Program-made: the position numbers and the translations under genes | The notes under the pieces: model-generated | Databases searched by the model: none | Seen by the model: only the letters and a program-made list of their open reading frames with translations | What the model was told of the DNA's origin: nothing | Shown: in pieces, positions 12,868 to 64,000 of the stretch | Numbering within the stretch: the first letter of the stretch is position 1 | Layout of the letters: each line of letters opens with the position of its first letter | Assembly: GCA_013152475.1 (NCBI GenBank) | Contig: JAADGH010000162.1 | Coordinates: forward strand, 45,994 to 109,993 | Reading direction: 5' to 3' | Length of the DNA: 64,000 bases | DNA from: Planctomycetota bacterium | Lineage (GTDB): Bacteria > Planctomycetota > Brocadiia > JAADGH01

Positions 12868-12936
12868 CCGGTTTTCGAACCTGAGAGTGTTATTGCCTAT
12901 TCATTGCCAAACCGTACTGTTTCGCTGTATCCGAGA

Positions 12937-16555: not shown

Positions 16556-18062
16556 AGACAAAGCGGGAATACAGCAGTCTTAGACGCAGTGCCATCGTAT
16601 CAACGATCCGCCTCAGGAGTTTCACTGGGTTGGTCCGAAGCAAGTGCATGCTTTCCTTGAGCCAGCGGCGAACGTTGAAGAGAGACAACCGCGTGTTGCG
16701 CTCGTACGCCGCCTTGAAGAGTTCCTGCTGCAAGGATCTAAACCGTTCCGGGGGGATATTGACAGCGAACCACGACCGCGAACTGGCATGGGAGAGTTTT
16801 GACCAATCGGGCCTGTCGCCGATCAGGCCCAGCCTCTTAACTTGCTCATGCATTTCGCTGCCGGGATAGGGAACGTAGGTATTGACGTAAACCAGGTCGT
16901 GTTTCAGCTCGCGAACCAGACGGATCGTCTTGCGAATGTCTTCCTCGGTTTCGTCTGGCGTCCCCACAAGAAATGTCGTAATCACCTGCATTCCCTCGCG
17001 ACGGACCAGTGCGATGGCCTTGCGCACCTTGTCTATGTCAACTTGCTTTTTCATGATTCGGAGCATACGCTCGCTCCCTGATTCGGCCCCGATCAGAACG
17101 GCCGTACAGCCTGACAGATGAAGCATCCTTGCCGAGGTGGCGTCGATGGCATCCGCCCTTGAAGAACACAGCCATTCGAATCCAAGTCCGGTGGCCCGGA
17201 CAGCCTTGCAGAAATGCAGCAGGCGGGACCGTTTCAAGGTAAGTGTGTCGTCCACGAAGTGAAACCTGCGGCACCCGAAGTCGCGCCCCAATTGCCGAAT
17301 CTCTGAGATGATATTGTCTACAGAACGGAATCGCACCTTTGTACCCCAGAGGCCTCTGGAATCGCAGAAGGTACACTGGTATGGGCAGCCGCGCGATCCG
17401 ATAATGGTGCCCATGTGGGTGTCTGAATAGAGGTCGGGAAAGAGCCTCAAGTCTTTGGCAGGGAACGGTAGTGAGTCGAGGTCCTTGATATAGGGTCTCA
17501 GGGGGTTGACGATCACCCGTCGGCCCTTCCTCAGGCAGATCCCCTCGATTGTACTGAGCGAGCGAGCGTCTTCGAGCGCGTCCACCAGCTCGACAATCGT
17601 GACCTCACCTTCGCCCCGCACCACAAAATCTATGTTCTTGTCGTCCATGACCTCTTCGGGACAGGCATTGGGGTGAGGACCACCGGCAACGACCACACAG
17701 TCAGGAAGCTCCTCTTTGGCCAGATGCGCCACGATCTTCGCGGAGGGAAGGGCCGGGCTCTGAATGCTGATGCCCACCATGTCCGGCGTCTGCTGTTTCA
17801 TGACGCTTCTGATCTCATCCCACACCGGATGGGCGCGATCGGCCAATGCCTGCAGGTACCGCTCCTGCCCGGAGGTCCTCTGGGCGTCCAACCAGGGGCG
17901 CTCAAACGTTGGCGTATCGGGTCCGATATCCGCGTTATAGATCCGGACCTGGTGATTCGCGTCTCTCAGAACGGCCCCAAGGTAGCCGAGCGACAACGGG
18001 AAAAAGTCGTTCTTGACACGCATCAGCCTTTCGAACGGAGGGAATACGAGCAGGACCTTCAC
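16545..18062 (-). CDS. B12-binding-domain radical SAM enzyme (class B, methyltransferase-like)
   Basis: N-terminal KVLLVFPP...PLSLGYLGAVLRDANHQVRIYN (cobalamin-binding Rossmann-like domain) followed by GSRGCPYQCTFCDS (CX3CX2C). GTG start 18062 with AAAGAGG ~8 nt upstream. Confidence 0.85.
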   Translation of the reverse strand: MKVLLVFPPFERLMRVKNDFFPLSLGYLGAVLRDANHQVRIYNADIGPDTPTFERPWLDAQRTSGQERYLQALADRAHPVWDEIRSVMKQQTPDMVGISIQSPALPSAKIVAHLAKEELPDCVVVAGGPHPNACPEEVMDDKNIDFVVRGEGEVTIVELVDALEDARSLSTIEGICLRKGRRVIVNPLRPYIKDLDSLPFPAKDLRLFPDLYSDTHMGTIIGSRGCPYQCTFCDSRGLWGTKVRFRSVDNIISEIRQLGRDFGCRRFHFVDDTLTLKRSRLLHFCKAVRATGLGFEWLCSSRADAIDATSARMLHLSGCTAVLIGAESGSERMLRIMKKQVDIDKVRKAIALVRREGMQVITTFLVGTPDETEEDIRKTIRLVRELKHDLVYVNTYVPYPGSEMHEQVKRLGLIGDRPDWSKLSHASSRSWFAVNIPPERFRSLQQELFKAAYERNTRLSLFNVRRWLKESMHLLRTNPVKLLRRIVDTMALRLRLLYSRFVYGL

Positions 18063-38026: not shown

Positions 38027-41000
38027 TTATCTTCCCACTTCGCAAACGCGAATGTCGTCGAACCACACCTTGCCCGAATGCCGGCGGAAGAGGGTGTGGA
38101 GGCGCAGGCTCTGGATCGGCTTGGTCGGTTCGATGAGGACCTCGGCGTACTCCCAGTCGTGTGTGCCGGGGGCGAAGTCGATGGTCTGGCCGTAGAGCGG
38201 CGTACCGTCGGCGTATCGGATGTCCACATACACCGAGTAGTCGTGGTTCTTCCCCCCGCTCACGTTTTCCGCCTTGCTCCAGCCGCAGAGCAGGAGCGGC
38301 GTGGCCTTCTTCTGGTTCAGCGTCACCTCCTGCGATGCGCCGCGGAACTCGATGGGGTAGGGGTTCTCGCACTTCAGGCATGAGCCGCCCTTGCGTCCGC
38401 CGAGCGAGATGTCGAAGCCCTTCTCGTACGGCTCCCACGACTCCTTGCCCTTCTCGAAGCCGCCGTTCTTCAGCAGGTTCAACTCGGTCGGCGCATAGCC
38501 GAAGGTCAGGTCTTGCTCGAAAGGTTTTGCCATGCCTGTGATCGAGGCAACGACCTTCGCCTGCACGATTCCTGCCGTGGCTGCCTTCGGCGGCACGAAG
38601 GCGAACTCGTACTTCCCTGAGGCAAGGCCATCAAGTGCCACCGCGACTTCGGTGGGCTCGACAGTCCATCCGGCCGGCGGCTTGGGTGTGATCTTGCCAG
38701 CGATCTTGCTGCGGGCGTTGTTCTGAACCGCCGCCACGAACTTCGGCCCGTCCTCGCATCGTGTCACCGTCACATCGCACAGCGGCGAGACGACGAGTGA
38801 CGAGTCCACGCAAACCATAAACGGTCGCGCCTCGCGGTCGGCGACGAGTGTTGCCATCAGTGGCAGATACCCGCCGAGCCGCGCGTCCTTCGGCACGGGG
38901 ACGGCCATGTCCAACTCGCGCACCTCGCCGGGCTGGATCGAAGTGAGCAATGCATTGCCCACCGCCTTCAACTCGCCCCCGGCCATCAGGGCAAGCTTCA
39001 CATCGCTCAGCTTGGCCTTGCCTTGGTTGCTGACCTTGAGCACGGCCTTCGCCGAGCGCCCTGCCGGGGCGGTTCGGTCGCCGGCGATTTCGATGTGTAC
39101 TCCCGAGAGGATCATTTGCGCCAGAGAGATACGCTTGCCGAGGTCATGGATGTCCACCATGAGCCCCCGCGCGCACTTGCCTTTTTCCTTGCACAAGTGG
39201 CAGACCTTCACCGTCTGCGCCGCCAACACTTTGTCGTCGAACGGTGACATGCGCAACTGCCGGGCGATCTCCTTGAGTTGAGCCGTGACCGTTTTTTTGT
39301 CCGCGTCGGACATCTTTTCGCCTGCGATGCGGTTGCACATGGTGCGGATGTAGTTTAGCGCCAGAGCCACATGGTATCCGGCCGCACGGTCCTTGCTCGT
39401 CAGCCACAGGGCTGCCACCCCGCGCGGCGGGAGTGTGCCGCGAACGCGGAGCTTGCCCCAGTCGTCCTTGCCTTCGAGCTCGTGGTGGCTCACGAGGTCG
39501 TAGATGATATTGTCCTGCGTGTCGATGCCGAGGGCCTTCGTGTCGATCTTGATGTCAAATTTCCGGTCGGCGTCCGTGTCGTTGTAAACGCTTATCTGGA
39601 CGTCCCTTGCGACAGCCGTTCCGAACCGTTCCACGCGGATATTCGGGTCTTCTGATGTGGCATGTGTGATCGGCTCCCATCCCGCTTCGGCGAGCTTGAT
39701 AATGGTGGGGATGTATTTTTTGAAGAGATGCCGTTCGCGATTATGAAACTCCGGCGTGTTCCAGAAGTTGTCGTGCGCCGACGCGCCGGGACTGAACATG
39801 GAGGGCAGGAAGCCATAATAGAGGCACTTGGTGAAGTACTTTTCAACTTCGCGATCGCGAAATTTCGTGAAGTCCTCGTTGTTCAGGGGCAGGAAGGGCT
39901 TCTGGTAGGCCATGGTGCGCCGGATGTCGAGGTAGGCGTCGTCGGCGCCGGTGCGTTTCATCCAATGGATTTCATTGCCCACCACATCCAGGTAGTGCGC
40001 CATGAAGGGAAACCGGGTCATGAATCCGTTTGCCATCAGGAATTTCTTTTTCGGCTTCAATTTTCGCGCCATGTGGGCGACATATTCGTACACGGTAAAG
40101 CAGGTAAGCTGCACCGGCTTCTTCGTGTCGTAGCTGAACGTAAGAGGGAAGTCCGCCACGCGCCAGAGGTCTCGGCGGTAATTCTCGCTTGGGCCGCGCC
40201 ACTCGCCGAATCCGTCGAAGTAGACGCCGTCGAGGATGTTGCCTTGGGCCTCTTCCTTCTCGAAGCGGCCGAAGATCCGCTCGTCCATCACTTTCGCTTT
40301 TGTGATTTTGCCGGGCACCTCGGGATCGGCGCTGACCATAAAGTCGTAGACCGTTTTCCCCCGGGCCCAGTCGGCGGTGTACATGCGCGTCGAGTACTTC
40401 CCGTCCTTTGTGTAGATGCCGCACGTCTTGGCGATGGCGACCTTCTCGGCCTGCTTGTCCTTCACGGCGGGGTGTTCCAACGCCTCTTTGGGGGATGGCT
40501 TTTTCTTGACGTCGGGCGGCAGGTAGAAGCGCAGGCTCCACGGCTCGACATACACGAAGCTCAGGATGTTGTGTGCGTCGTCGTAACCCACATCGCTTGC
40601 GCCCTCTTGAAAGCCAAAACCGAAGTCCTCCGCCTTTTCGATCTTGCTGATCTTGGTGAACGGCTGCCAGATGCCCTGGCGCTTGGCGCGGCAGTCGAAA
40701 GACTGGGGGAAGATCTCGTAGTAGCGCTTCGCTGCGGCGCGGAATCCCCATTTGCCCTCGGTGCCGTAGATGATGAACTTGAACTTCGCGGCGGAGGGCG
40801 ACTTGCCCATGTCCGGACTCAGGCCGAGATCGAAGGCGATCTGGTATCGCTTCTTTTCCGGGTCATATGAGATGCGGTGGATGATCGGAGTATCCAGGGG
40901 AATGCCGATGCACACACCCACATCCTTGCTCACGCACGAGAAGGGATAGACCGAGTGCCTCCCGCCACTGTCGCCGTGCGTGGTCCAGTTGTGATACGCG

Positions 41001-41407
41001 CCGGCGTCTTCAATCTTTCGCGATGTGCGGATATCGTCCCACCACGTCCAGCCCCGGGCATCGAGGGGCAGGGCGAATTTGACGATAATCGCCCGGTCCT
41101 TGCCGGTCGTATCGCTGAGACGACCGTTCACCTCGACCCGCCCCGGGTTGATGACGTAGTCCATATCCAGCTCGATGCCGAGGTCGTCGCGATGGATGCG
41201 CTGTTTCGCGCCCTCCTCGGTTGTTTCGACCTTGCCGTGCACCCTGATCTCCGGCTTGCCATTGCCGAAGTCCTCAATGAAAATACTGGACTCATCAACA
41301 AGGCGCACGATGAGCTTGCCGCCGACGTAATCCGCCGGCGCAGGCCGGATGCCTGAAAGGAGCAGAAAGAGAAGCGTTGCACACAGCAGCATTCGGTGTT
41401 GTTTCAT
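38027..41407 (-). CDS. large secreted protein with C-terminal CBM4/9-like carbohydrate-binding domain; catalytic region unassigned
   Basis: Signal peptide MKQHRMLLCATLLFLLLSGIRPAPA. The C-terminal ~170 aa start NLLKNGGFEKGKESWEPY... and end ...KVWFDDIRVCEV, typical of CBM_4_9-like jelly rolls. The central ~700 aa have no motif I can name. Confidence 0.6.
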   Translation of the reverse strand: MKQHRMLLCATLLFLLLSGIRPAPADYVGGKLIVRLVDESSIFIEDFGNGKPEIRVHGKVETTEEGAKQRIHRDDLGIELDMDYVINPGRVEVNGRLSDTTGKDRAIIVKFALPLDARGWTWWDDIRTSRKIEDAGAYHNWTTHGDSGGRHSVYPFSCVSKDVGVCIGIPLDTPIIHRISYDPEKKRYQIAFDLGLSPDMGKSPSAAKFKFIIYGTEGKWGFRAAAKRYYEIFPQSFDCRAKRQGIWQPFTKISKIEKAEDFGFGFQEGASDVGYDDAHNILSFVYVEPWSLRFYLPPDVKKKPSPKEALEHPAVKDKQAEKVAIAKTCGIYTKDGKYSTRMYTADWARGKTVYDFMVSADPEVPGKITKAKVMDERIFGRFEKEEAQGNILDGVYFDGFGEWRGPSENYRRDLWRVADFPLTFSYDTKKPVQLTCFTVYEYVAHMARKLKPKKKFLMANGFMTRFPFMAHYLDVVGNEIHWMKRTGADDAYLDIRRTMAYQKPFLPLNNEDFTKFRDREVEKYFTKCLYYGFLPSMFSPGASAHDNFWNTPEFHNRERHLFKKYIPTIIKLAEAGWEPITHATSEDPNIRVERFGTAVARDVQISVYNDTDADRKFDIKIDTKALGIDTQDNIIYDLVSHHELEGKDDWGKLRVRGTLPPRGVAALWLTSKDRAAGYHVALALNYIRTMCNRIAGEKMSDADKKTVTAQLKEIARQLRMSPFDDKVLAAQTVKVCHLCKEKGKCARGLMVDIHDLGKRISLAQMILSGVHIEIAGDRTAPAGRSAKAVLKVSNQGKAKLSDVKLALMAGGELKAVGNALLTSIQPGEVRELDMAVPVPKDARLGGYLPLMATLVADREARPFMVCVDSSLVVSPLCDVTVTRCEDGPKFVAAVQNNARSKIAGKITPKPPAGWTVEPTEVAVALDGLASGKYEFAFVPPKAATAGIVQAKVVASITGMAKPFEQDLTFGYAPTELNLLKNGGFEKGKESWEPYEKGFDISLGGRKGGSCLKCENPYPIEFRGASQEVTLNQKKATPLLLCGWSKAENVSGGKNHDYSVYVDIRYADGTPLYGQTIDFAPGTHDWEYAEVLIEPTKPIQSLRLHTLFRRHSGKVWFDDIRVCEVGR

Positions 41408-41454: not shown

Positions 41455-41510
41455 AATATACCCATTGCCACTGGAATCCTCAAGGGGAAAAACGACGAGG
41501 AGTTTTCCCA
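41455..41510 (-). promoter_or_regulatory. predicted promoter with upstream G-rich box for the 1126-aa secreted protein
   Basis: Minus strand: TGGGAAAACTCCT (41510-41498), 14 nt, TTGAGG (41483-41478), 17 nt, TATATT (41460-41455). ATG at 41407. Confidence 0.5.
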
Positions 41511-42711: not shown

Positions 42712-42869
42712 CCAAATCCGCAATCAGATGAGTCCGGCTTCGACGGCGAGCCTCCCCCGCTCCTTCGGTTCGCGGAGGGGGTGGGGGTGGCCGACGTCCA
42801 GGTGGGAGGAGGGCGGTTTGTCGGTGAAGAACTGGCTCCGGCGCCACGCCTTGTCGATGCTCATGCGGT
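42712..42869. repeat. right direct repeat (functional 3' end of radical SAM gene) paired with 41801-41958
   Basis: See 41801-41958. Repeat offset is 911 bp. Similarity stops abruptly at both ends. Confidence 0.8.
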
Positions 42870-44316
42870 AGAGGTCGTATTCCGTAAAGTGGGCGTATTT
42901 CCGCCGGTCGCGCATCTGCCGAAACGGGAGCAGGGCGTAGCGGCGGAACAGACTGGAGATGGGGAAGCGGCGGCTGACCGTCTTCGGCTCCGGGCGGAAC
43001 CGGAGCGAATGCTGTCGGTGGTATTTCCATTTTAGGAACTGGAGATCATCGCTGCTGAGGTGTTTCGTTCGCACGTTTGCCCAGAAACCGTTGTAGTAGC
43101 GGTAGTCGTCGGGGTTGGTCACCATGCCGAGTCTGAGAAGGTCGTCGCGCGAGACGGTTTTGGGATAGGGGCAGATAATTTGGTCGAGGTAGTATTCCAC
43201 CTCGTGATCGCGGAGGAACTCATAGTTCGGGGCAATGTCCTCCTCCCGGTCGTCGGGGTGGCCGATGATGATTCCACCGATGCAGATGATGTTGTTCTTG
43301 TGCAGGTTTTCGATGGCGCGGCGCGACTTATCGGCGATGTCTCCCTTCCGCATCAGCTTCAGGTTGCGGCTGTTGATGTTCTCGATGCCGAGGAAACAGA
43401 TGGCGAATCCCACACGGCTCATCTTCCGAACCAGCCCGGGATTCATGCCGATGCCGTGGGAGCTGGCCTGGACAACGTAGCGCATGTCATCGTGCCCAGC
43501 GGCGATGAGCATATCGCACAGCTTATCGAAGCGCGGGATGTTCAGCGTGATGTTGTCGTCGATGAAGCCGATGAACCGCGCGCCGTTCCTTCTCGCGGCG
43601 GTCACGTCGTCGAGCACGCGTTGCAGATCATACTCTCGGTAGGTCCGTCCGTACATTCCGGCCATGCTGCAGAACTTGCACGCCATGGTGCATCCGCGCG
43701 ACGTCTCGACCAGGGCCACGCGTTTGCCGTAGATCCCGAACCGGGGCCAGAGCCGCGCCGTGCGGCGGGGGAGGGCAAGGGTGTTCAGGTCGAGCTGCGC
43801 CTTCGGCGGGGGATTGTGGACCCACTGGCCGTTGTCGCGGAAGCTAAGGCCAGGGATGTTGGCCAATCCCTTTTTGGTCTTGGATTTTCGATTTTCGATT
43901 TTTCCCAGAGCGTCAAGCAGTCGTGGGAAGCTCTGTTCACCTTCGTGGCGGATGAGAAAATCGAAGAGATCGCTTTGCTCTCCGTCGGCGATTTCCCTGT
44001 GCATCAGTGTCGGGTGGTATCCACCGGCGCAGATATTGATATCCGGATCATGCTCCCGGACGAGGCGGGCGACGCCGCACATGGTGTTGAACTGGAAGGT
44101 CATCCCGGACACGCCGACGAAGCGCGGCTTGACGGTTTCGAGCGCCTCCTTCACCCCGGCGCGGATGTCCTTGCGTCGGCAGCACAGATCGGCAACGACC
44201 ACTTCATGGTCCGGTGCGGATGCGGCAAGACTGCACAGGCCCAAGTTTGGCCAAGTATTGAGCCCGGTACGGAAGTTCGGCATCGTATCGGGCATGGCGA
44301 ATAGGAGCGCCTTCAT
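42724..44316 (-). CDS. B12-binding-domain radical SAM enzyme (second copy of this class in the window)
   Basis: True start ATG 44316 (MKALLFAMPDTMPNF...). B12-binding-like N-terminal domain (VGVSGMTFQFNTMCGVARLVRE..ICAGGYHPT), then ETSRGCTMACKFCS (CX3CX2C). The track ORF 42724..45162 carries an implausible 281-aa N-terminal extension. Confidence 0.85.
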   Translation of the reverse strand: MKALLFAMPDTMPNFRTGLNTWPNLGLCSLAASAPDHEVVVADLCCRRKDIRAGVKEALETVKPRFVGVSGMTFQFNTMCGVARLVREHDPDINICAGGYHPTLMHREIADGEQSDLFDFLIRHEGEQSFPRLLDALGKIENRKSKTKKGLANIPGLSFRDNGQWVHNPPPKAQLDLNTLALPRRTARLWPRFGIYGKRVALVETSRGCTMACKFCSMAGMYGRTYREYDLQRVLDDVTAARRNGARFIGFIDDNITLNIPRFDKLCDMLIAAGHDDMRYVVQASSHGIGMNPGLVRKMSRVGFAICFLGIENINSRNLKLMRKGDIADKSRRAIENLHKNNIICIGGIIIGHPDDREEDIAPNYEFLRDHEVEYYLDQIICPYPKTVSRDDLLRLGMVTNPDDYRYYNGFWANVRTKHLSSDDLQFLKWKYHRQHSLRFRPEPKTVSRRFPISSLFRRYALLPFRQMRDRRKYAHFTEYDLYRMSIDKAWRRSQFFTDKPPSSHLDVGHPHPLREPKERGRLAVEAGLI

Positions 44317-44369: not shown

Positions 44370-44425
44370 ATAATATCACAAGCCGTCTGCCATTTTCAAG
44401 AGAAAAAGTAGGAGGAGTTTCCCCA
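44370..44425 (-). promoter_or_regulatory. predicted promoter with G-rich box for the radical SAM gene 42724-44316
   Basis: Minus strand: TGGGGAAACTCCT (44425-44413), 13 nt, TTGAAA (44399-44394), 18 nt, TATTAT (44375-44370). Confidence 0.5.
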
Positions 44426-57495: not shown

Positions 57496-57550
57496 CGGGT
57501 TATGATGTTTGATCGTAACACGCCGGGGCACAGGTGTCAATTGCCGGTCC

Positions 57551-57579
57551 TTGACAGGGCAAGGGGCGTTTGATAGGTT
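57551..57579 (+). promoter_or_regulatory. sigma70-like promoter TTGACA-17-TAGGTT
   Basis: TTGACA 57551-57556, 17-nt spacer, TAGGTT 57574-57579. Supports the downstream GTG 57620 start rather than TTG 57509. Confidence 0.5.
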
Positions 57580-57619
57580 GAGGTCGCGGCGGGATCAGAC
57601 CAGCAGGAATAGCCATACC

Positions 57620-59782
57620 GTGACAGACCGCAGGCCGATCAAAGGGATAGCGCTCTCCATTGCCATCGGTCTTTCCCTCGCCTGCGCCGGGTGCGGGGAG
57701 ATCGCCTTCGTCAACGCCGGCGTGCTGGGATTCGCGGGCGCGGCGGCAATCCCCGTGATCCTCCATCTGCTCTTCCGCCGCCGTCCCCGACGGGTGAAAT
57801 TCCCGCCGATCCGATTCATCCTCCGATCGAAGAAGGCGACGTCGAGGCGGTTCAAGCTGAAACACCTCATGCTGCTTCTGGCCCGGATGCTCATTATCGC
57901 GCTGTTCGTGCTGATTCTGAGCCGGCCGTACGTGCGGAGCGAGCAGAAGGTGGTGCACGGGAAGGCGCGCGTGAAGGCCGTCCTGCTCCTCGACAACTCG
58001 TTCAGCATGGGCTACACGGAGCGCAAGGTCTCGCGGTTGAACCAGGCGAAGAAGCTGGCCCTGCAGGTGATGAACTCCTTCGATCTGGGCAGCGAGGTGG
58101 CCGTGATCAGCACGTCCGAGGTGGCCGGCAGTTTCACGGTGGACGTGGAGCGGGTGAGACAGCAGATCGGCGACCTGCCCCTGACCGCCCGGGCCGATTC
58201 CTGTTGGGCGGCGGTGCGGAAGGCGGAGGCCCTGCTAACGGAGGAGACCTCGCTGCCGAGGGAGGTCTATGTCTTCTCCGACATGACAAAGAACGCATGG
58301 CCGGCTGGAGAGAAGCTCAAGGTCGATCCGAAGAACCACTGGTGTTTCGTGGACGTAAGCGGCGAGAAGAACGAGAACCTCTGGATCGATTCGCTGGCGC
58401 AGGACAGGCGGACCGTTGCGCTCAACAAACCCATACGCATCACCGCGACGGTTCGGGGGAAAAGCCCGACGCCGCGGGTCATCGAGTTCATCGTGGACGG
58501 AGAGAAGCGAAACCAGCAGCAGGTCGATCTCCAGAGCGGTCTTGCGACGTGCGCCTTCGACTATGTGCCGCGGCAGCAGGGCATTCACTTCGGCGCGGTG
58601 GGGCTTGCCGGGGAGGACCCACTCCCCGTGGACAACAAGCGCTACTTCGTCCTGAACGTCCGCCCGGCGGCGAAGGTGCTCTGTGTGTCGGAGGACGAAG
58701 CGGACGCCTTTTACCTGATGAACGCGCTGGATCCCACCGGTGAGGTCAAGCGCCGGACCGTGCAGCCCGTCTGGGCAAGCCCGTCGGATCTCATGGAGAA
58801 AGACCTGGGTTCCTTTCAGGCCGTCTTTCTCTGCAACGTCGCCAAGCTCGACGCCGGCCAGGCGGCGAAGATCGCCGGCTATGTGTCCGGGGGAGGAGGG
58901 CTCGTGATCCTCGCCGGCGGCCGCACCGACCTGAAAGAATTCCTCCCGCACGACAGCGGCATCTTGCCGGCCGGGGAAATGGAGGTCGCCGAGGTTCCGA
59001 AGGGGGTCGTGTTTCAACCGGGAGACTACGCCCATGCCATCCTCGAGTCGTTCCGGGGGGGACGGAACGGTGATCTGACGCTGCCGCGTTTCCATAAATA
59101 CCTGGAGCTCTTTGCCGGGGCGCCCGAGAGCCGGATGACGGCCATTCTCCCCTTCAGCAACGGCTCGCCGGCGCTGCTGAGGAACCAGTTGGGGTCGGGC
59201 AAGGTGCTCTTCCTCGCCAGCAGCATAGCGGCAAGCGACACGATGGCGGCGCCAAAGGCGTGGAACGACCTGCCGAAGACGCCGTGCTTTGTGCCGTTCA
59301 TCCACGAGCTGTTGGATTACGTGGCGCGGTATGCGGAGGGGCCCGCCGACGTGCGGGTGGGGGAGCCCGTGCCGATCGGCGTGGCCGGGCCGCCCGCCGG
59401 TTGCACGGTCGAGGTGACGCCGCCGGGGAGGGCGCGGAGGATCCGGGTGCCCGTGGACAGCACCACGTCCTTTGCGGTATTCCGGGAGACGAGAGAGCCG
59501 GGGGGCTACGTGGCGGCGGTCACCTCCGGTGAAAAAGAGAGAAAATACGGCTTTGTTGCGAATGTGGACGCGAACGAATCGGACCTGACGAGGACCGACG
59601 CGCGGGCGATTGCGGACCAGATGCCCCGCGCGCGGATTCGGTTTGCCCGGGGGGCGGACGACCTGCGAAAGATCGAGCGCGAGCTCCGGATCGGCCGGGA
59701 GCTTGGCCAGATGCTTCTGTGGCCGCTGCTCCTCCTTGTCCTGGCCGAGGTCATTATGGGAAATACATTCTACAAGGACTGA
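57620..59782 (+). CDS. BatA-type N-terminal double-TM / VWA-domain membrane protein
   Basis: GFAGAAAIPVILHLLFRRRPRRVKFPPIRFI (aerotolerance BatA_N-like motif), VWA MIDAS VLLLDNSFSMG, C-terminal TM. Start uncertain: GTG 57620 is in frame, and the track start TTG 57509 lies only 13 nt from the divergent ATPase start. Confidence 0.75.
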   Translation: MTDRRPIKGIALSIAIGLSLACAGCGEIAFVNAGVLGFAGAAAIPVILHLLFRRRPRRVKFPPIRFILRSKKATSRRFKLKHLMLLLARMLIIALFVLILSRPYVRSEQKVVHGKARVKAVLLLDNSFSMGYTERKVSRLNQAKKLALQVMNSFDLGSEVAVISTSEVAGSFTVDVERVRQQIGDLPLTARADSCWAAVRKAEALLTEETSLPREVYVFSDMTKNAWPAGEKLKVDPKNHWCFVDVSGEKNENLWIDSLAQDRRTVALNKPIRITATVRGKSPTPRVIEFIVDGEKRNQQQVDLQSGLATCAFDYVPRQQGIHFGAVGLAGEDPLPVDNKRYFVLNVRPAAKVLCVSEDEADAFYLMNALDPTGEVKRRTVQPVWASPSDLMEKDLGSFQAVFLCNVAKLDAGQAAKIAGYVSGGGGLVILAGGRTDLKEFLPHDSGILPAGEMEVAEVPKGVVFQPGDYAHAILESFRGGRNGDLTLPRFHKYLELFAGAPESRMTAILPFSNGSPALLRNQLGSGKVLFLASSIAASDTMAAPKAWNDLPKTPCFVPFIHELLDYVARYAEGPADVRVGEPVPIGVAGPPAGCTVEVTPPGRARRIRVPVDSTTSFAVFRETREPGGYVAAVTSGEKERKYGFVANVDANESDLTRTDARAIADQMPRARIRFARGADDLRKIERELRIGRELGQMLLWPLLLLVLAEVIMGNTFYKD

Positions 59783-59783
59783 C

Positions 59784-61961
59784 GTGGGCGAGAAGTTGGC
59801 GTTCGACAGCGTGATCCCCTTCCCCCTCGCGATCGGCGTGGTTGCGGCGCTCGCAGTGGGGTGCGTTGCTGCGTATGTGGCGACGGCGCGCCACCGTGTT
59901 TCGCCGGCTGCCCAGGTGGCCCTGATCCTGTTCCGGCTCGTGGCGTTGAGCGCCGTTGCCCTCCTGCTTCTCCGGCCGGCATGGCTGGCGGAGGAGACGA
60001 TCCGCGAAAAACTGGGCCTGGTCCTGCTGGCCGACGCATCGAAGAGCATGTCCATTCGTGACGGCGATGGCGGGCGGTCTCGCGCCGAGGTGGCGGCGGC
60101 CATCCTGAGGCTGTGCGGCCCCCAGCGCAGGCTCCTTGCGCAAAAATACCACTTTAGTGAATATCAATTCGACAGGAGCATCTCGGACCTGGCGCCGAAC
60201 GCCTACAAGGCGGACGGCGACGTGACGGCCATCGGCGATGCGCTCGCTCTCTCCCGCCGGCAGGTGACGGTCGGGAACGTTGCGGGCGCCGTCCTGCTGA
60301 CCGACGGGGCCAACAACTTCGGGCGTGACCCGGATGTGGTCGCCCGGGACTTTGGCTCGCGCAAGATACCGATCTATCCCGTCGTCATCGGCAAGAGCGA
60401 GATTGGGGAGGCCATCAAGGATGTGAAGGTGACCTCGTTGGACCTCGGCGCCTCGGCCTTTGCCCGGAGCGTTGTCCCGGTGACCGCGGACCTCCGATTC
60501 GTCTACTGTGACGGCGAAAAGGTCAAGGTGTCTTTACGGGTGGATGAGAAGACCGTCGAGAAGAAGGTCCTGACGGTCAAGGGCCCGGACGCGCGGCAGC
60601 GGGTGGCCTTTGATTTCGTGCCGGACACGCCGGGTTCGCGGAAGATCACGGTGGACGCCAAACCGGTGAAGGGCGAGATCATCACGACCAACAACAGCAT
60701 CAGCTCCTACCTTCATGTCCTTACCGGGGGGCTGAAGGTCCTCTATATCGACCGCCCGCGGAGCGAGTTCAAGTTCCTCCGGCAGGCCTTCGCCGAGGGG
60801 AAGGACATCCAGTTGACCGTGGTGGCAACCCTCGGCGAGGCCGTCGAGAGGCCCAAGACCCGGCAAGAGTGGAAGCGGTTCGATGCGGTGCTTGTGGGCG
60901 ACGTGCCGAGCAGCGTCTTCAGCCTGTCGCAACTGCGAAATCTGGAGCGGGCCGTCTCCCAGAACGGGATCGGCTTCGGCATGATCGCCGGCACGCGCAA
61001 CTTCTCCGCCGGGGGCTATGCCCGCAGCCCTGTGGCGAAGCTGCTGCCGGTGACACTGGGGGGAGAGACGCCATTCCGGGGGGAATACCGATTGCGTTTC
61101 ACCCCGGGCGGGCTGGGGCATTTTATGGTTCGGCTGGACAGTGATCCCGACGCGAACCGGAAGGCCTGGGCAGAGGTGCGCCCGCTCTCGGGCGGCATCG
61201 CGTTCAGCGGGACGAAACCCGGGGCCCACGTGCTGGCCTACGGACCGGACAACCAGCCGATCCTCGTCGTGCAGCAGTATGGCAAGGGAAGGACGATGGC
61301 CTTTGCGGCGGACACGACGTGGCGTTGGGCCTTTGCCGAGAAGGACACGAAGAAATTCCATCGCCGGTTCTGGCGGCAGGCGCTGCTGTGGCTGGGCGAC
61401 AAGGAGGGTCTGGGTCGGGCGAACGTCTGGGTCGGCCTTCAATCGCTGCGGGTCATCAAGGGCGAGCAGATGGACATCCGCGCCCACGTGGAGGATTCGC
61501 TCGGCCGCGATGTGCCGGACGCGAAGGTGAAGGGCAAAGTCGTCCTGCCCGGCGGAAAGACCGTCCCTGTCGTCTTTCGCTTCAGCGAAGATCAGTACGT
61601 CTGCTCCTACCGCCCGGCGACGGCGGGGGACTATCAGATAAGAGTGAGCGCGTACGGACTCGATGGCGCCCCGTTGGGCGACGACATGGTGAAGTTCCTG
61701 GCGTATGTGCCGGAGGTCGAACTGGAACGGCCGGCGGCGAACCCGGAGGCGATGAAGCGCCTCGCGGCCCTGTCGGGGGGGCGGCTCTACACGGCGGAGA
61801 CAGCCGGCGAGCTGTTCAAGGAGCTCGCCTTGCGCGACGCGAGCATCGAGATCAAGCGCACCGAGCCGCAGCCGATCTGGAGCGGTCGCTGGGTGCTCTA
61901 TGTCTTCCTTGCCGCGCTGACGCTGGAGTGGATCGTGCGGAAGCTCAACCGGCTTGTGTGA
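59784..61961 (+). CDS. VWA-domain membrane protein with GATase1-like (DUF1355-type) C-terminal domain
   Basis: GTG 59784 lies 1 nt after the upstream TGA (VGEKLAFDSVIPFPLAIGVVAALAVG...). MIDAS LVLLADASKSMS, LLTDGANNFG. GLKVLYIDRPRSEFKFL...FDAVLVGDVP is a GATase1-like fold. C-terminal TM. Confidence 0.75.
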   Translation: MGEKLAFDSVIPFPLAIGVVAALAVGCVAAYVATARHRVSPAAQVALILFRLVALSAVALLLLRPAWLAEETIREKLGLVLLADASKSMSIRDGDGGRSRAEVAAAILRLCGPQRRLLAQKYHFSEYQFDRSISDLAPNAYKADGDVTAIGDALALSRRQVTVGNVAGAVLLTDGANNFGRDPDVVARDFGSRKIPIYPVVIGKSEIGEAIKDVKVTSLDLGASAFARSVVPVTADLRFVYCDGEKVKVSLRVDEKTVEKKVLTVKGPDARQRVAFDFVPDTPGSRKITVDAKPVKGEIITTNNSISSYLHVLTGGLKVLYIDRPRSEFKFLRQAFAEGKDIQLTVVATLGEAVERPKTRQEWKRFDAVLVGDVPSSVFSLSQLRNLERAVSQNGIGFGMIAGTRNFSAGGYARSPVAKLLPVTLGGETPFRGEYRLRFTPGGLGHFMVRLDSDPDANRKAWAEVRPLSGGIAFSGTKPGAHVLAYGPDNQPILVVQQYGKGRTMAFAADTTWRWAFAEKDTKKFHRRFWRQALLWLGDKEGLGRANVWVGLQSLRVIKGEQMDIRAHVEDSLGRDVPDAKVKGKVVLPGGKTVPVVFRFSEDQYVCSYRPATAGDYQIRVSAYGLDGAPLGDDMVKFLAYVPEVELERPAANPEAMKRLAALSGGRLYTAETAGELFKELALRDASIEIKRTEPQPIWSGRWVLYVFLAALTLEWIVRKLNRLV

Positions 61962-61992: not shown

Positions 61993-62316
61993 CTATGGGG
62001 CGAGGGTCTGCCCATCGATCCACTTGAGGTACGGCTCCGACCCGGCGACGATCGGGAGGGCGATGATCTCGGGCACCTCGTAGCTGTGCAGCTCCTTGAC
62101 GCGCGCGGCAAGCCGGTCGAACAGGTCCCGGCGGGTCTTCATGATAAGGAGCACCTCCTCGTCATCGCAGACCTTCCCCTCCCAGCGATAGATGGAACGG
62201 ATGCTCTGGGTGATGTTGCCGCAGGCGGCAAGCCGCTCATCGACGACGGCCCTGGCGATCTTTGCCGCCTCCTCGCTGCTCGGGGCGGTGACGAAAACGG
62301 CGATGTGGCTGTCCAT
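61993..62316 (-). CDS. cutA: divalent-cation tolerance protein CutA
   Basis: Preferred ATG 62316: MDSHIAVFVTAPSSEEAAKIARAVVDERLAACGNITQSIRSIYRWEGKVCDDEEVLLIMKT...SYEVPEIIALPI is the canonical CutA1 sequence pattern. Confidence 0.9.
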   Translation of the reverse strand: MDSHIAVFVTAPSSEEAAKIARAVVDERLAACGNITQSIRSIYRWEGKVCDDEEVLLIMKTRRDLFDRLAARVKELHSYEVPEIIALPIVAGSEPYLKWIDGQTLAP

Positions 62317-62441
62317 GGTTTCTCTCCCTGGGTCCTTTCCGCGCGACGTTGGTAGCTGGCCGTGGCACAGTGTAGCCGCACGGGAGACGGCATGCAAGCC
62401 CGTTCATTCCCTTTTTCCGTCCAAATGTGGCCACGGGTGCA

Positions 62442-62500
62442 AAGTTATTTTCTGGTACAACGGGGTGGCAAGGTGTCATAATATTCCAGGACTTTCCCCA
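62442..62500 (-). promoter_or_regulatory. predicted cutA promoter with G-rich box
   Basis: Minus strand: TGGGGAAAGTCCT (62500-62488), 16 nt, TTGCCA (62471-62466), 18 nt, TAACTT (62447-62442). Confidence 0.4.
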
Positions 62501-62561: not shown

Positions 62562-62752
62562 GGAACCCACGCCCTGTCACTGCGAGGAGTCACGCGCTTC
62601 GCGTGATAACGAAGCCTGTTTGCGTGCGACGCACAGGCAGGCAATCTCATCGAACGAGGCCGGTTGGAGGGGTGAGATTGCATCGCCACCTCTTTCGCTA
62701 TCGCGAAAGAGGCTCCTCGCGATGACACGGCGGAGGTCATGGGGAAACTCCT
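62562..62752. repeat. composite hairpin (REP/MITE-like) element, copy 2 (inverted relative to copy 1)
   Basis: 62562-62683 is the reverse complement of 36799-36920 (5 mismatches in 122 nt). The terminal GCGATGACACGGCGGAGGTCATGGGGAAACTCCT is shared with 41498-41531 and 36662-36700. Confidence 0.8.
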
Positions 62753-62795
62753 GTCGATTTTTTGTCTTGACAAAAGGAGATGGTGACGGTAATCT
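62740..62795 (+). promoter_or_regulatory. predicted promoter with G-rich box driving the riboswitch operon
   Basis: TGGGGAAACTCCT (62740-62752), 14 nt, TTGACA (62767-62772), 17 nt, TAATCT (62790-62795). Confidence 0.55.
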
Positions 62796-62797
62796 AT

Positions 62798-62995
62798 GGA
62801 GACAATCTGAGAGACCGTTGTCCAACATCTCGGAACACGGTGTGAATCCGTGACGGTCCCGCCGCTGTGATCGCGGACATGGGACGGCAACAGCGCCGGA
62901 GGGCAGGCGCGGCCACTGCTGGGGCTCACCCCAGCGGGAAGGCTGCCGTCACATGGATGATGCGAAAGCCAGAAGACCTGTTGGGTAATGTGATC
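62798..62995 (+). promoter_or_regulatory. cobalamin (B12) riboswitch aptamer
   Basis: Conserved core strings GGAACACGGTGTGAATCCGTGACGGTCCCGCCGCTGTGA (62832-62870), GGCCACTG (62911-62918)...GGGAAGGC (62936-62943), and the B12 box AGCCAGAAGACCTG (62967-62980). The boundaries are approximate. Confidence 0.85.
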
Positions 62996-63017
62996 TCGGG
63001 CTGACCAATGGCAAAGG

Positions 63018-63066
63018 AAAGCCCCGGAAGCAGACCGTGCGCTGCTTGCGGGGCTTTTTTATTATT
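63018..63066 (+). terminator. rho-independent terminator (riboswitch expression platform)
   Basis: GCCCCGGAAGCAG (63021-63033) pairs with CTGCTTGCGGGGC (63042-63054), followed by TTTTTTATTATT. Confidence 0.8.
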
Positions 63067-63100
63067 GAGTGGTGCGCACGGAGAAAAAAGGAGATGGGTC

Positions 63101-63220
63101 ATGGCAAGTGAGAAGAAGAGCGCGGAAAAAAAGGTCGTTGCCTATCGACGCGAGTGCAAGAAGGCCGCAGATGGTACCGGACTGTCCCACTACATCATGA
63201 TGGACTCCAAGAAGAAGTAA
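63101..63220 (+). CDS. 39-aa Lys-rich peptide (candidate RiPP precursor or small basic protein)
   Basis: AAGGAG 7 nt upstream of ATG 63101: MASEKKSAEKKVVAYRRECKKAADGTGLSHYIMMDSKKK. The track ORF 63008..63220 starts inside the riboswitch/terminator, so the internal start is preferred. Coding status unproven. Confidence 0.5.
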   Translation: MASEKKSAEKKVVAYRRECKKAADGTGLSHYIMMDSKKK

Positions 63221-63230
63221 CACAGACAAC

Positions 63231-64000
63231 ATGACAAAGAAAGAAGTTGTGTCGAGGGGGGCCAGGGGCAGGTATGCCAATACCGGCTACGGCCCCCACC
63301 TCGACATCGTGGACATCGGGTCCGACGAATACGTCGCGGTCATCGAAGGGGACACGGCCTTCTGGGCGCTTCTGCCCAAGGGGTCTGCGACCGACGCGAT
63401 CAAAGACGGGACCATTCGGAAGACGTTCCGACGCAAGGCCGATGCGATGCAGCGAGAGATGCAGGCCCTTCGCTTCGGCCTTACGCCATCAGCGGTTTAC
63501 TTCAATCCCACCGAGCGCTGCAACCTCAATTGCAGCTATTGCTACCTGCCCGGCAAGATGCGGCGCAGCGGCGTCAATATGTCGGCGGAGAAGGTCTGCC
63601 GTGCGCTGGGCATTCTAAGGAGCTACTTCAAATCATCGCTGCCGAGGGGCAGAAAGCCTCAGCTTGTTTTCCATGGCAGCGAACCCATGGTGGTGCGGGA
63701 TGCCGTGTTTGCCGGCATCGAGAAGTTCGCCGACGATTTCCGATTTGGCGTTCAGACCAATGCGACGCTGCTGGATGACGAGGCCATTGACTTTCTGCGC
63801 TCGCATGGGGTTGGGATCGGCATCTCCCTCGACGGACATCGGGCGCAGGTGGCCGACCGGACTCGGCACAATTGGTCGGGCGGCGGCAGCTTCCGCAAGG
63901 TCACGAAAATGCTGGAACGGCTGGCCGACTATCCCGCGTTGAATGTGATCTGCACCGTTACGCAGGCGAACGTGCGGTCATTGACAAAGATTGTGGAGTT
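63231..64000 (+). CDS. radical SAM enzyme (anSME/SPASM-type core), 5' part; runs off the right window edge
   Basis: Not in the ORF track (no stop in window). Hand translation from ATG 63231 stays open to 64000: MTKKEVVSRGARGRYANTGYGPHLDIVDIGSDEYVAVIEGDTAFWALL...AVYFNPTERCNLNCSYCYLPG...LVFHGSEPMV...FGVQTNATLLDDEAIDFLRSHGVGIGISLDG. CX3CX2C at residues ~97-104. Confidence 0.8.
   Translation, partial: MTKKEVVSRGARGRYANTGYGPHLDIVDIGSDEYVAVIEGDTAFWALLPKGSATDAIKDGTIRKTFRRKADAMQREMQALRFGLTPSAVYFNPTERCNLNCSYCYLPGKMRRSGVNMSAEKVCRALGILRSYFKSSLPRGRKPQLVFHGSEPMVVRDAVFAGIEKFADDFRFGVQTNATLLDDEAIDFLRSHGVGIGISLDGHRAQVADRTRHNWSGGGSFRKVTKMLERLADYPALNVICTVTQANVRSLTKIVE

Follow-up and report, generated by a model that had tools for sequence, protein, structure and literature searches.

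Positions 62741–64000 of the window, by which we mean the whole 64,000-nucleotide stretch of Planctomycetota DNA analyzed here, are a self-contained transcription unit in which a promoter, a cobalamin riboswitch, an intrinsic terminator, and the genes cbpA and cbpB follow one another on the forward strand. The module almost certainly belongs to the catalogued CbpA/CbpB ('cobopep') family. Taken as a whole, it is probably best explained as a unit that is turned off by B12, in which CbpB modifies the CbpA peptide and the product, probably kept inside the cell, serves cobalt or corrinoid supply. An earlier note on this DNA had proposed a riboswitch-gated, RiPP-like precursor and maturase unit, and was aware of no described module of this kind. 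The proposed layout is supported by our analysis, but its novelty is not: both genes fall within curated NCBIfam equivalog families (TIGR04164 and TIGR04163), and the names CbpA and CbpB already stand in public GenBank records. The NCBI annotation pipeline already has names for this family, of which the seemingly novel riboswitch-gated RiPP is an ordinary member, and our result is in this respect mainly a correction. A full-text literature search found no experiment or publication on CbpA/CbpB, nor a paper defining the modification or the role. The family is widespread in corrinoid-dependent anaerobes (Desulfomonile, Dehalococcoidia, Lentisphaerota, Planctomycetota, Hydrogenophilales, and Methanomassiliicoccales), and the window copy shares its gene order, core motif, and upstream cobalamin riboswitch, with nothing essential different.

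A cobalamin riboswitch and an intrinsic terminator lie upstream of cbpA

The only Rfam match anywhere in the 64-kb window was a cobalamin riboswitch, RF00174, at 62832–62977 (+), with a score of 65.0 bits against a gathering score of 31.5 (E = 8.8e-14, model positions 47–167). The orthologous element of the closest relative (locus L001) spans the full model (positions 1–189). This local match, the full-model match in L001, and the predicted fold together delimit the aptamer to 62803–62985 (+). The earlier note had recognized the riboswitch from characteristic strings, and all of these were located in the window sequence: GGTGTGAATCC, CCCGCCGCTGTGA, GGCCACTG, GGGAAGGC, and the B12 box AGCCAGAAGACCTG at 62968–62981. 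In the minimum-free-energy fold of 62800–63066, a long helix closes the aptamer; CCAACA (62823–62828) pairs with UGUUGG (62980–62985), and with its extension the helix reaches about 62803 on one side and about 63003 on the other.

Downstream of the aptamer, an intrinsic terminator at 63019–63066 (+) forms the predicted expression platform of the riboswitch. The GC-rich hairpin with a T-run that had been noted at 63021–63066 is real, with a stem at 63019–63056 followed by TTTTTTATTATT and a folding energy of –26 kcal/mol; the 96-nt stretch scored z = –3.05 against shuffled sequences. L001 has the identical terminator sequence, and of 26 related loci with a riboswitch, 24 have a comparable terminator after the aptamer, as does the window. 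Between the aptamer and the terminator lies a strand, 62984–63003 (+), that has two alternative pairing partners, namely the 5′ leader (as an extension of P1) or the 5′ arm of the terminator (63021–63036). When the transcript was folded as it would be before the 3′ arm of the terminator exists, 62984–63003 and 63021–63036 formed a hairpin of –17 to –19 kcal/mol. From this thermodynamic prediction on one sequence, we infer that 62984–63003 is a candidate antiterminator.

Expression of cbpAB is very probably under B12-OFF control, the direction of switching being predicted from the terminator-type platform. On binding of a corrinoid to the aptamer, the extended closing helix would hold the 62984–63003 strand, so that the terminator would form and transcription would stop before cbpA. 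When B12 is scarce, the same strand would instead pair with the 5′ arm of the terminator, and cbpA and cbpB would be transcribed. The canonical cobalamin regulon (btuB, cbiMNQO, cob/cbi, metE, and nrd) is governed by this RF00174 aptamer as well, combined with a terminator-type OFF platform like the one predicted here, and some genomes place cbpAB together with cbi and cbiM genes. The genes of that regulon, however, encode enzymes and transporters of known function, whereas cbpAB encodes a ribosomal peptide and its predicted maturase.

A putative sigma-70-type promoter was read from the sequence at 62768–62796 (+), with a –35 element TTGACA (62768–62773), a 17-nt spacer, and a –10 element TAATCT (62791–62796). 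The sequence is thus present as the earlier note had it, but the –10 element is weak; it agrees with the consensus at only three of six positions, and for this reason a consensus scanner makes no call there. The –35 element and the adjoining T-run (CGATTTTTTGTCTTGACA) are identical in L001, where a TATGCT –10 element lies 17 nt downstream, and the homology between the window genome and L001 begins exactly at CGATTTTTTGTCTTGACA.

Immediately upstream, at 62741–62762 (+), is a box of the form GGGGAAACTCCT-N5-TTTTT that recurs in the window (four matches, against 0.10 expected by chance). The other copies lie upstream of the gene at 42724–44316, upstream of an unrelated 1126-aa ORF at 38027–41407, and, in a weaker form, before cutA; the full 21-mer version is unique in the window, and the box is not conserved in L001. 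It is a genome-wide promoter module that is not particular to the cbpAB operon. The likeness to the box of 42724–44316 is real, as had been pointed out, but the link to B12 drawn from it did not hold, and we rejected the shared box as a B12 regulon signal on account of the copies before the 1126-aa ORF and cutA.

cbpA encodes a conserved precursor peptide

The cbpA gene (63101–63220, +) encodes a 39-aa precursor peptide, MASEKKSAEKKVVAYRRECKKAADGTGLSHYIMMDSKKK, with the core VVAYRRECKKAADGTGLSHYIMM. Its ATG at 63101 is preceded, 7 nt upstream, by the Shine-Dalgarno sequence AAGGAG (63088–63093, +), which was read from the sequence and is conserved in L001; both the ribosome-binding site and the 39-codon ORF agree with the earlier reading. 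CbpA matched NCBIfam TIGR04164 ("modified peptide precursor CbpA", cobo_pep) over residues 13–38 with 43.8 bits against a cutoff of 35 (E = 1.3e-11). The core of the window peptide, R-x-x-C...G-x-G-L-S-H-Y, aligns with 46 homologues, and the near-invariant core of the family, R-x-x-C-x(3-5)-G-x-G-L-(S/T)-H-Y, extends from Planctomycetota through methanogenic archaea. The termini are highly charged and variable, whereas a single Cys, the His, and the Tyr are invariant. In CbpA of the window, L001, and L002, the spacing between the Cys and G-x-G is two residues longer than in the usual members of the family (C-x5-G instead of C-x3-G), and the Lys-rich N-terminus is longer as well.

Among the 53 related loci that we compared, a homologous small ORF lies immediately upstream of cbpB on the same strand in all 47 for which upstream sequence was at hand, including archaeal loci that have no riboswitch. 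Between the window and L001, cbpA differs at nine nucleotides, and all nine differences are synonymous, against a CbpB that is merely 77–82% identical between the two. Both NCBI and JGI already list the exact CbpA peptide. In look-ups aimed at extending the contig, it matched only a relative's contig (L061), and an exact look-up of full-length CbpB found no record.

cbpB encodes a radical SAM/SPASM enzyme

The cbpB gene starts with an ATG at 63231, 10 nt past the stop codon of cbpA, and runs to the end of the window (63231–64000, +), which cuts it after 256 of 468 codons. The radical SAM ORF that the earlier note had translated by hand at this position was confirmed: NPTERCNLNCSYCY, VFHGSEPM, and QTNATLL are found after about 90 N-terminal residues, residues 92–234 match PF04055, and the radical SAM cluster motif C97-x3-C101-x2-C104 lies inside the window. 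The fragment matched TIGR04163 (NCBIfam "peptide-modifying radical SAM enzyme CbpB", model name rSAM_cobopep) with 330.6 bits over profile positions 2–233 of 428. The window's own full-length CbpB (P0001, 468 aa), whose first 256 residues are identical to the fragment, scored 678.3 bits against a cutoff of 375, over positions 2–428 of 428. Past the window end, this protein carries a SPASM domain (PF13186) with C342...G350-x4-C355, C397-x2-C400-x5-C406-x3-C410, and C428. Across 45 homologues, nine of the ten Cys of the radical SAM and SPASM motifs never vary, and the tenth, C342, is retained in at least 90% of them.

An AlphaFold2 model of CbpB (pLDDT 87) had its best PDB fold match in the sactisynthase CteB, and anSME, ChlB, TigE, and SuiB were also among the best; PQQ- and mycofactocin-type maturase families were among the weaker profile and fold matches. 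The N-terminal extension had been suggested to be a PqqD-like peptide-binding element (RRE, PF05402). This suggestion found no backing in Pfam (the fragment had no match at E ≤ 1, and 20 N-domains had none at E ≤ 10), in a PDB profile search (no relevant sequence match), or in a fold search with the isolated domain, whose model of three strands and two helices (pLDDT 75) had no match better than E = 0.8. As a side observation, the only hint of an RRE is that CbpB at full length aligns with the RRE-bearing CteB over 454–468 Foldseek columns.

Co-conservation of the two genes and the homology of CbpB to peptide maturases lead us to predict that CbpA is a modified peptide and CbpB its maturase. 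An opposite reading, that the 39-codon ORF is a regulatory leader or a chance ORF and that the enzyme acts elsewhere, for example as an anaerobic sulfatase maturase, could draw on public records that call some homologues 'anaerobic sulfatase-maturating enzyme', and on a sulfatase gene found on the opposite strand, 1.4 kb upstream, in L001 and L061. It is effectively refuted by the score of CbpA above the TIGR04164 cutoff, by the presence of the peptide at all 47 loci, even archaeal ones that lack the riboswitch, and by the purely synonymous divergence of cbpA from L001. CbpB itself reached only 114.9 bits with the sulfatase-maturase model TIGR03942, for which the cutoff is 349. This is a superfamily-level match, and we rejected the assignment as a sulfatase maturase.

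cbpAB resembles known peptide–maturase pairs but differs in its setting

CbpB resembles CteB (PDB 5WHY/5WGG) and PapB (NF047865) in combining a radical SAM domain with a SPASM domain that has two auxiliary clusters, and in both cases a short Cys-containing substrate peptide is encoded directly upstream, as cbpA is. CteB matched the CbpB fold with a Foldseek E-value of 2e-21 and a TM-score of 0.67–0.75 at a sequence identity of about 22%, and PapB was the second-best NCBIfam match (130.5 bits, under the cutoff of 340). Judging from the modelled fold, it is plausible that CbpB works like CteB. The differences are that the substrates of sactipeptide and ranthipeptide maturases have several Cys, whereas CbpA has one invariant Cys; that the N-terminal domain of CbpB is unlike a recognizable RRE; that cbpAB is not accompanied by a transporter or protease gene; and that B12 control and a cbi-operon context set it apart from bacteriocin clusters.

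A second comparison is SCIFF/ScfB (TIGR03974), likewise a minimal pair, in which a single SPASM maturase accompanies a short and highly conserved peptide; like cbpAB, this pair is widely distributed in anaerobes and has no export genes. CbpB shows weak homology to TIGR03974 (101 bits, cutoff 425), but the SCIFF peptide belongs to a different family with a different motif and has six Cys compared with one in CbpA. SCIFF is not known to be riboswitch-controlled.

A short ORF just ahead of a radical SAM/SPASM gene is the classic layout for sactipeptides and ranthipeptides, and the best fold match of CbpB is a sactisynthase. Both would suit an antimicrobial, bacteriocin-like RiPP made under B12 limitation that harms competitors or releases their corrinoids. 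We consider this very unlikely: the CbpA core is almost invariant over bacterial phyla and archaea, as opposed to fast-diversifying bacteriocins; immunity, transporter, and leader-protease genes are absent beside cbpAB; and cbpAB is found within housekeeping cbi operons.

Genomic context points toward B12 supply

Of 39 bacterial loci that could be tested, 31 carry RF00174 directly before cbpA (27/35 among L001–L049 and 4/4 further ones). In six of the eight bacterial loci without it (L012, L015, L021, and L031–L033), cbpAB sits inside a cbi operon. These six operons contain CbiA, CbiC or CbiF, CbiX, CbiM/Q/O, CbiD, and CbiET, and a CbiX-type chelatase gene comes immediately after cbpB in every one of them, despite an otherwise differing gene order. 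At L032, cbiA, which is the first identified cbi gene of the locus, has a riboswitch right in front of it, about 3.2 kb upstream of cbpA. For the remaining two loci (L013 and L047), which have no cbi context either, a search for RF00174 at E ≤ 0.1 found none.

Of 49 loci, 14 have cobalamin or cobalt-transport genes beside cbpAB. In L007, L018, and L029, the flanking genes are late or salvage genes (CbiB, CobD/Q, and CobT), and genes of the CbiMNQO cobalt importer adjoin the pair in L012, L015, L021, L024, and L025. A riboswitch was searched for and not found at the archaeal copies; at one of these (L046), a NicO Ni/Co transporter gene is divergent from cbpA, and the other archaeal neighbors are mostly uninformative (amidohydrolase, CBS, tRNA synthetase, and oxidoreductases). 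In the window and in L001, as in most loci, cbpAB has no cobalamin or cobalt gene nearby, and hence it is the riboswitch and a minority of operons that tie the pair functionally to B12. The pair is a stand-alone two-gene unit with unrelated neighbors; in the closest relative, the gene after cbpB is on the opposite strand. Conserved neighbors beyond cbpA and cbpB were sought across 49 loci and none was found, nor was there a protease or transporter gene in the neighborhoods of L061–L065.

The earlier note had also raised a B12-independent back-up for the two B12-binding radical SAM enzymes of the window. In this reading, the product would be a cofactor derived from a peptide, or a partner of an enzyme, that takes over from a B12-dependent function in the absence of B12. 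Cobalamin riboswitches are indeed known to control B12-independent isozymes (metE and nrd, for example), SPASM enzymes make the peptide-derived cofactors PQQ and mycofactocin, and the two B12-binding radical SAM genes that had been noted in the window (16545–18062 and 42724–44316) are both genuine, each matching PF02310 and PF04055. Yet the box shared with one of these two genes also precedes unrelated genes, the further enzymes of PQQ- and mycofactocin-type pathways are absent, and cbpAB is co-operonic with B12 biosynthesis genes and has neither a candidate client enzyme nor a conserved partner gene. Since the cbi-operon and cobalt-gene context of cbpAB points to supplying B12 rather than replacing it, the back-up was not upheld, and we regard such a substitute as quite improbable.

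The peptide could, alternatively, supply B12 from outside the cell, as a modified CbpA that the cell exports when starved of B12, to act as a cobalt- or corrinoid-binding metallophore, and then takes up again. The copper-binding peptide methanobactin, a metal-serving modified peptide made when the cofactor of its metal is scarce, offers a functional analogy for the CbpA hypothesis, although it has no sequence or enzyme homology to CbpA or CbpB and is encoded with export and uptake genes, of which cbpAB has none. Repression of cbpAB by B12 would resemble that of uptake systems, the invariant Cys, His, and Tyr could serve as metal ligands, and CbiMNQO genes adjoin the pair in the five loci named above. 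The CbiMNQO family, however, imports the free ion, the ends of CbpA are highly charged and variable, and no exporter, protease, signal peptide, or dedicated receptor was conserved beside cbpAB in about 50 loci. A secreted scavenger is thus unlikely, if somewhat less so than a B12 substitute. The CbpA product most likely stays in the cell, because protease, exporter, and immunity genes are lacking and because its core is conserved from Planctomycetota to archaea.

Proposed function of CbpA and CbpB

On balance, we favor a role for CbpA and CbpB in B12 or cobalt supply. CbpB, with its radical SAM cluster (C97/C101/C104) and a SPASM domain bearing two auxiliary-cluster Cys motifs, is predicted to modify the core of CbpA. 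The likeliest reaction would be an intramolecular cross-link, either a Cys thioether of the CteB/PapB type or a C-C link at His or Tyr, and the modified CbpA may then support B12 supply by handling cobalt or corrinoid intermediates in biosynthesis or salvage. Any specific chemistry or chaperone mechanism is put forward tentatively. Several carriers of cbpAB are Dehalococcoidia/Dehalococcoidales metagenome-assembled genomes, and many Dehalococcoidia salvage corrinoids rather than build the ring. These carriers, together with the late or salvage genes at L007, L018, and L029, speak against a role confined to the chelatase step.

The most far-reaching version, which we hold to be possible but doubtful, is that modified CbpA is a RiPP-type cobalt or corrinoid chaperone, conserved among anaerobic bacteria and archaea, whose accessory function in cobalamin supply has gone unrecognized. 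It might, for example, deliver Co(II) to the CbiX-type chelatase or carry corrinoid intermediates via its invariant His and Tyr. A chaperone of this kind would bring a ribosomal peptide into a pathway whose parts are considered fully listed. More generally, should CbpA turn out to handle cobalt or corrinoids, B12 metabolism would gain a component of a new type, and CbpA would be one of the rare RiPPs with a housekeeping role.

A catalogued precursor-maturase pair

As the earlier note had read, an AAGGAG element (63088–63093, +) lies 7 nt before the ATG at 63101 (+) of a 39-codon ORF, which translates as MASEKKSAEKKVVAYRRECKKAADGTGLSHYIMMDSKKK, and a radical SAM ORF starts 10 nt after its stop (ATG 63231, +) and runs off the window. 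With 43.8 bits, the peptide passes the cutoff of 35 set for TIGR04164 ('cobo_pep, modified peptide precursor CbpA'). The 256-aa enzyme fragment, with CX3CX2C at C97/C101/C104 and a Pfam match to PF04055 at residues 92–234, reached 330.6 bits against TIGR04163 ('rSAM_cobopep, peptide-modifying radical SAM enzyme CbpB'), aligning to the first 233 of the model's 428 positions. Both models are NCBIfam (formerly TIGRFAMs) equivalog families, and 'cobopep' presumably refers to an association with cobalamin genes. A homology search recovered the window's own full-length protein, P0001 (468 aa, first 256 residues identical), which matched TIGR04163 end to end at 678.3 bits (cutoff 375) and carries the SPASM domain that the earlier note had proposed looking for. 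The next best families, PapB (130 bits), DynA (122) and anaerobic sulfatase maturase (115), were far under their cutoffs.

The cbpAB module of the window thus belongs, as an ordinary member, to a family already catalogued as CbpA/CbpB and is not new as a kind. The claim that no such module had been described was wrong at the level of curated annotation, where, besides the two models, GenBank already uses 'modified peptide precursor CbpA' (MBI4288176.1, OGV57744.1, HCE43655.1) and 'peptide-modifying radical SAM enzyme CbpB'. Full-text literature searching found no paper on the system, and its chemistry and function appear unstudied; the link to cobalamin biosynthesis operons makes the family a reasonable experimental target.

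A scan of one genome per species yielded 49 CbpB relatives (loci L001–L049). Upstream sequence is available for 47 of these loci, and every one of the 47 has a small CbpA-like ORF immediately before cbpB. These peptides share a near-invariant core, R-x-x-C-x(3-5)-G-x-G-L-(S/T)-H-(Y/F). CbpA is 100% identical to the peptide of the closest relative, L001 from a Planctomycetota MAG. The two 120-nt ORFs differ at nine nucleotides, each difference being synonymous, which is the bias that the suggested codon-level check was to look for, while the CbpB proteins are 77–82% identical; strong purifying selection therefore acts on cbpA at the protein level. A mere leader ORF next to a sulfatase-maturase-type enzyme was considered and is refuted by the family scores and the conservation. 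Variants of the peptide were also seen. One Sedimenticola ORF (L030, ~2078–2460) holds two tandem core copies (…VIAYRKRCDADGVGLSHYILMDK…VIARRKRCSADGVGLSHYILMDK…). In archaeal CbpA (L037–L043, L045, L046, L048, L049) an acidic tail ending in a conserved …(E/S/A)(L)PF replaces the bacterial Lys-rich C-terminal tail, and Methanomassiliicoccales peptides carry an additional Cys, placed four residues before the invariant one.

A cobalamin riboswitch and terminator precede cbpA

The only Rfam match in a scan of the entire window is a cobalamin riboswitch, RF00174, at 62832–62977 (+; 65.0 bits against a gathering score of 31.5, E 8.8e-14). All strings quoted for it earlier are present, including the B12 box AGCCAGAAGACCTG (62968–62981, +). 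The proposed terminator also stood: directly 3' of the aptamer, a GC-rich hairpin (stem 63019–63056, +; −26 kcal/mol) is followed by TTTTTTATTATT, and the surrounding 96 nt gave z = −3.05 against shuffles. An intrinsic terminator occupies this place in 24/26 related riboswitch-bearing loci, in addition to the window. A linker, AUGG(C/U)AAAGG, usually precedes the terminator stem (63008–63018 in the window); it is conserved across phyla in ~26 related loci and is possibly part of the switching mechanism.

In the MFE fold of 62800–63066, a long helix (~62803–62828 with 62980–63003) closes the aptamer, after which the terminator forms. Before the 3' arm of the terminator is made, 62984–63003 can pair with the 5' arm (63021–63036) at a predicted −17 to −19 kcal/mol. 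This alternative pairing suggests that ligand-stabilised closure of the aptamer would free the terminator and turn expression OFF, and that the antiterminator would be favoured, with expression ON, when B12 is missing. Such a direction is the usual logic of cobalamin riboswitches. The main reading of the earlier note, a B12-repressed peptide with its radical SAM maturase, was right, the repression being deduced from predicted folds.

Among L001–L049, 35 bacterial loci could be tested for RF00174, and 27 of them have it immediately before cbpA, as do 4/4 further loci obtained independently by exact protein look-ups. It is absent from all 11 archaeal loci, which fits a riboswitch class that is known from bacteria. 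Second cobalamin riboswitches adjoin cbpAB in L018 (5346–5519, −), L024 (5209–5397, −), L029 (8313–8529, +) and L030 (3963–4139, +), divergent from the pair or directly downstream, where they head neighbouring cobalamin or cobalt genes and make these loci small B12-regulated islands.

cbpAB behaves as a cassette and recurs in cobalamin operons

Bacterial carriers of CbpB include Planctomycetota, Nitrospinota, Desulfomonile and other Desulfobacterota, Dehalococcoidia and other Chloroflexota, Lentisphaerota, Omnitrophota, Hydrogenophilales, other Gammaproteobacteria and Bacillota; archaeal carriers include Methanomassiliicoccales, Hydrothermarchaeota and a halobacterial MAG. The order seen in the window (aptamer, terminator, peptide gene, maturase gene) is conserved across phyla. 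Homology between the window and L001 starts exactly at the −35 region (CGATTTTTTGTCTTGACA) and the flanks are unrelated, so the module looks like a cassette complete in itself. It stands alone among unrelated genes in L001 (and its contig, L061) and in the look-up loci L062–L065, with no protease, exporter or immunity gene beside it. All-against-all clustering of neighbouring ORFs found no neighbour besides cbpA and cbpB conserved across the family.

Eight bacterial loci have no riboswitch next to the pair. In six of them (L012, L015, L021, L031–L033), cbpAB sits inside anaerobic cobalamin-biosynthesis operons, ordered CbiA-CbiC-cbpA-cbpB-CbiX-CbiM-CbiQ-CbiO-CbiD-CbiET-CbiF or CobA-CbiA-CbiM-like-CbiF-cbpA-cbpB-CbiX-CbiC-CbiD-CbiET. 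In L032, RF00174 (2520–2734) immediately precedes cbiA, the earliest of the cbi genes identified there. A gene for a CbiX-type (small sirohydrochlorin) chelatase is immediately 3' of cbpB in all six (e.g. L032, 5992–8272), although other genes differ in order, and this adjacency suggests that the pair is functionally tied to cobalt insertion. CbiB, CobD/CobQ and CobT flank cbpAB in L007, L018 and L029, CbiMQO is nearby in L024 and L025, and in an archaeal MAG the divergent neighbour of cbpA is a NicO-family Ni/Co transporter gene (L046, 4983–5786, −). Altogether, 14/49 loci have cobalamin or cobalt-transport genes within ~6 kb.

B12-repressed expression, placement in cbi operons and beside cobalt importers, the extreme conservation of the core and the lack of export genes together argue that cbpAB would help to supply B12, not replace it. 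Against a B12-independent substitute stand the lack of any conserved client enzyme and the operons that the pair shares with B12 synthesis genes. A bacteriocin is at odds with the conservation pattern and with the lack of immunity or export genes. A secreted cobalt or corrinoid scavenger is possible, but export and uptake genes are not present. We favor an intracellular peptide that would handle cobalt or corrinoids. A link to cobalt insertion is favored by the cbpB-cbiX adjacency; a role confined to that step is disfavored by the late or salvage genes that flank the pair in L007, L018 and L029, and by the Dehalococcoidia MAGs that carry the pair, since many Dehalococcoidia are not known to build the corrin ring.

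Other neighbors were noted. In L062, a single metagenomic contig, a RACo-type reductive activator of corrinoid proteins (11897–13861, +) lies 3.5 kb downstream of cbpB, which may be coincidence. Upstream in the window are a BatA/VWA 'aerotolerance'-type gene and a GATase1-like protein (57509–61961, +), and a CutA1 divalent-ion tolerance protein (61993–62397, −); none is conserved beside cbpAB in relatives.

The CbpB model resembles the thioether synthase CteB

P0001 was modelled with AlphaFold2 from an alignment of 45 homologues (mean pLDDT 87.3, pTM 0.88), and the best PDB fold match of the model is the sactipeptide thioether synthase CteB (5WHY/5WGG; E 2e-21, 454–468 aligned columns), with anSME, ChlB, TigE and SuiB among the other top matches; a PDB sequence profile search agreed on CteB, anSME, ChlB and TigE. 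The SPASM motifs are C342...G350-x4-C355, C397-x2-C400-x5-C406-x3-C410 and C428. C342 is kept in at least 90% of the 45 homologues, and the other SPASM Cys, plus C273, C332 and C337, are invariant; this pattern indicates two auxiliary clusters.

CbpB would probably install an intramolecular cross-link in the invariant CbpA core. A thioether from the one invariant Cys would agree with the resemblance to CteB and PapB, and a C-C link at the His-Tyr pair would agree with weaker matches to cyclophane-forming enzymes. The N-terminal 90 residues are predicted to form three strands and two helices. The PqqD-like element proposed there found no support, as Pfam, the PDB sequence profile and a fold search with the isolated domain (best E 0.8) gave no PqqD/RRE match; the small sheet may still bind the peptide by strand addition.

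Promoter module and other features of the window

The two B12-binding radical SAM genes noted earlier are real (PF02310 + PF04055). One, at 16545–18062 (−), has a methyltransferase gene on one side and a hexapeptide-transferase gene on the other. The ORF of the other, at 42724–44316 (−), extends to 45162, but its domains begin near residue 300, in agreement with the shorter start chosen before. The promoter box said to be shared by this gene and cbpA (GGGGAAACTCCT-N5-TTTTT..CTTGA) is indeed common to both. It did not hold up as a B12 signal: it also precedes an unrelated 1126-aa ORF (38027–41407; sole Pfam match, an NPCBM-associated domain), a weaker copy is upstream of cutA, and it is absent from L001. 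The full module, TGGGRAAACTCCT-N4-5-TTTTT-N-CTTGAnn-17-(-10), has four matches in the window (62741–62773, +; 44394–44424, −; 41488–41509, −; 62478–62499, −) where chance would give 0.10. This suggests a promoter element in general use in this Planctomycetota-like genome, which may be a transcription-factor site or an UP-element-like feature.

The cutA-cbpA intergenic region (62580–62715) holds several short GC-rich hairpins, including CCTCTTTCGC/GCGAAAGAGG at 62689–62712 and two read by eye near 62592–62608 and 62620–62640 (TCACGCG…CGCGTGA and TGCGT…ACGCA), which may be terminators or REP-like elements for convergent or divergent neighbors.
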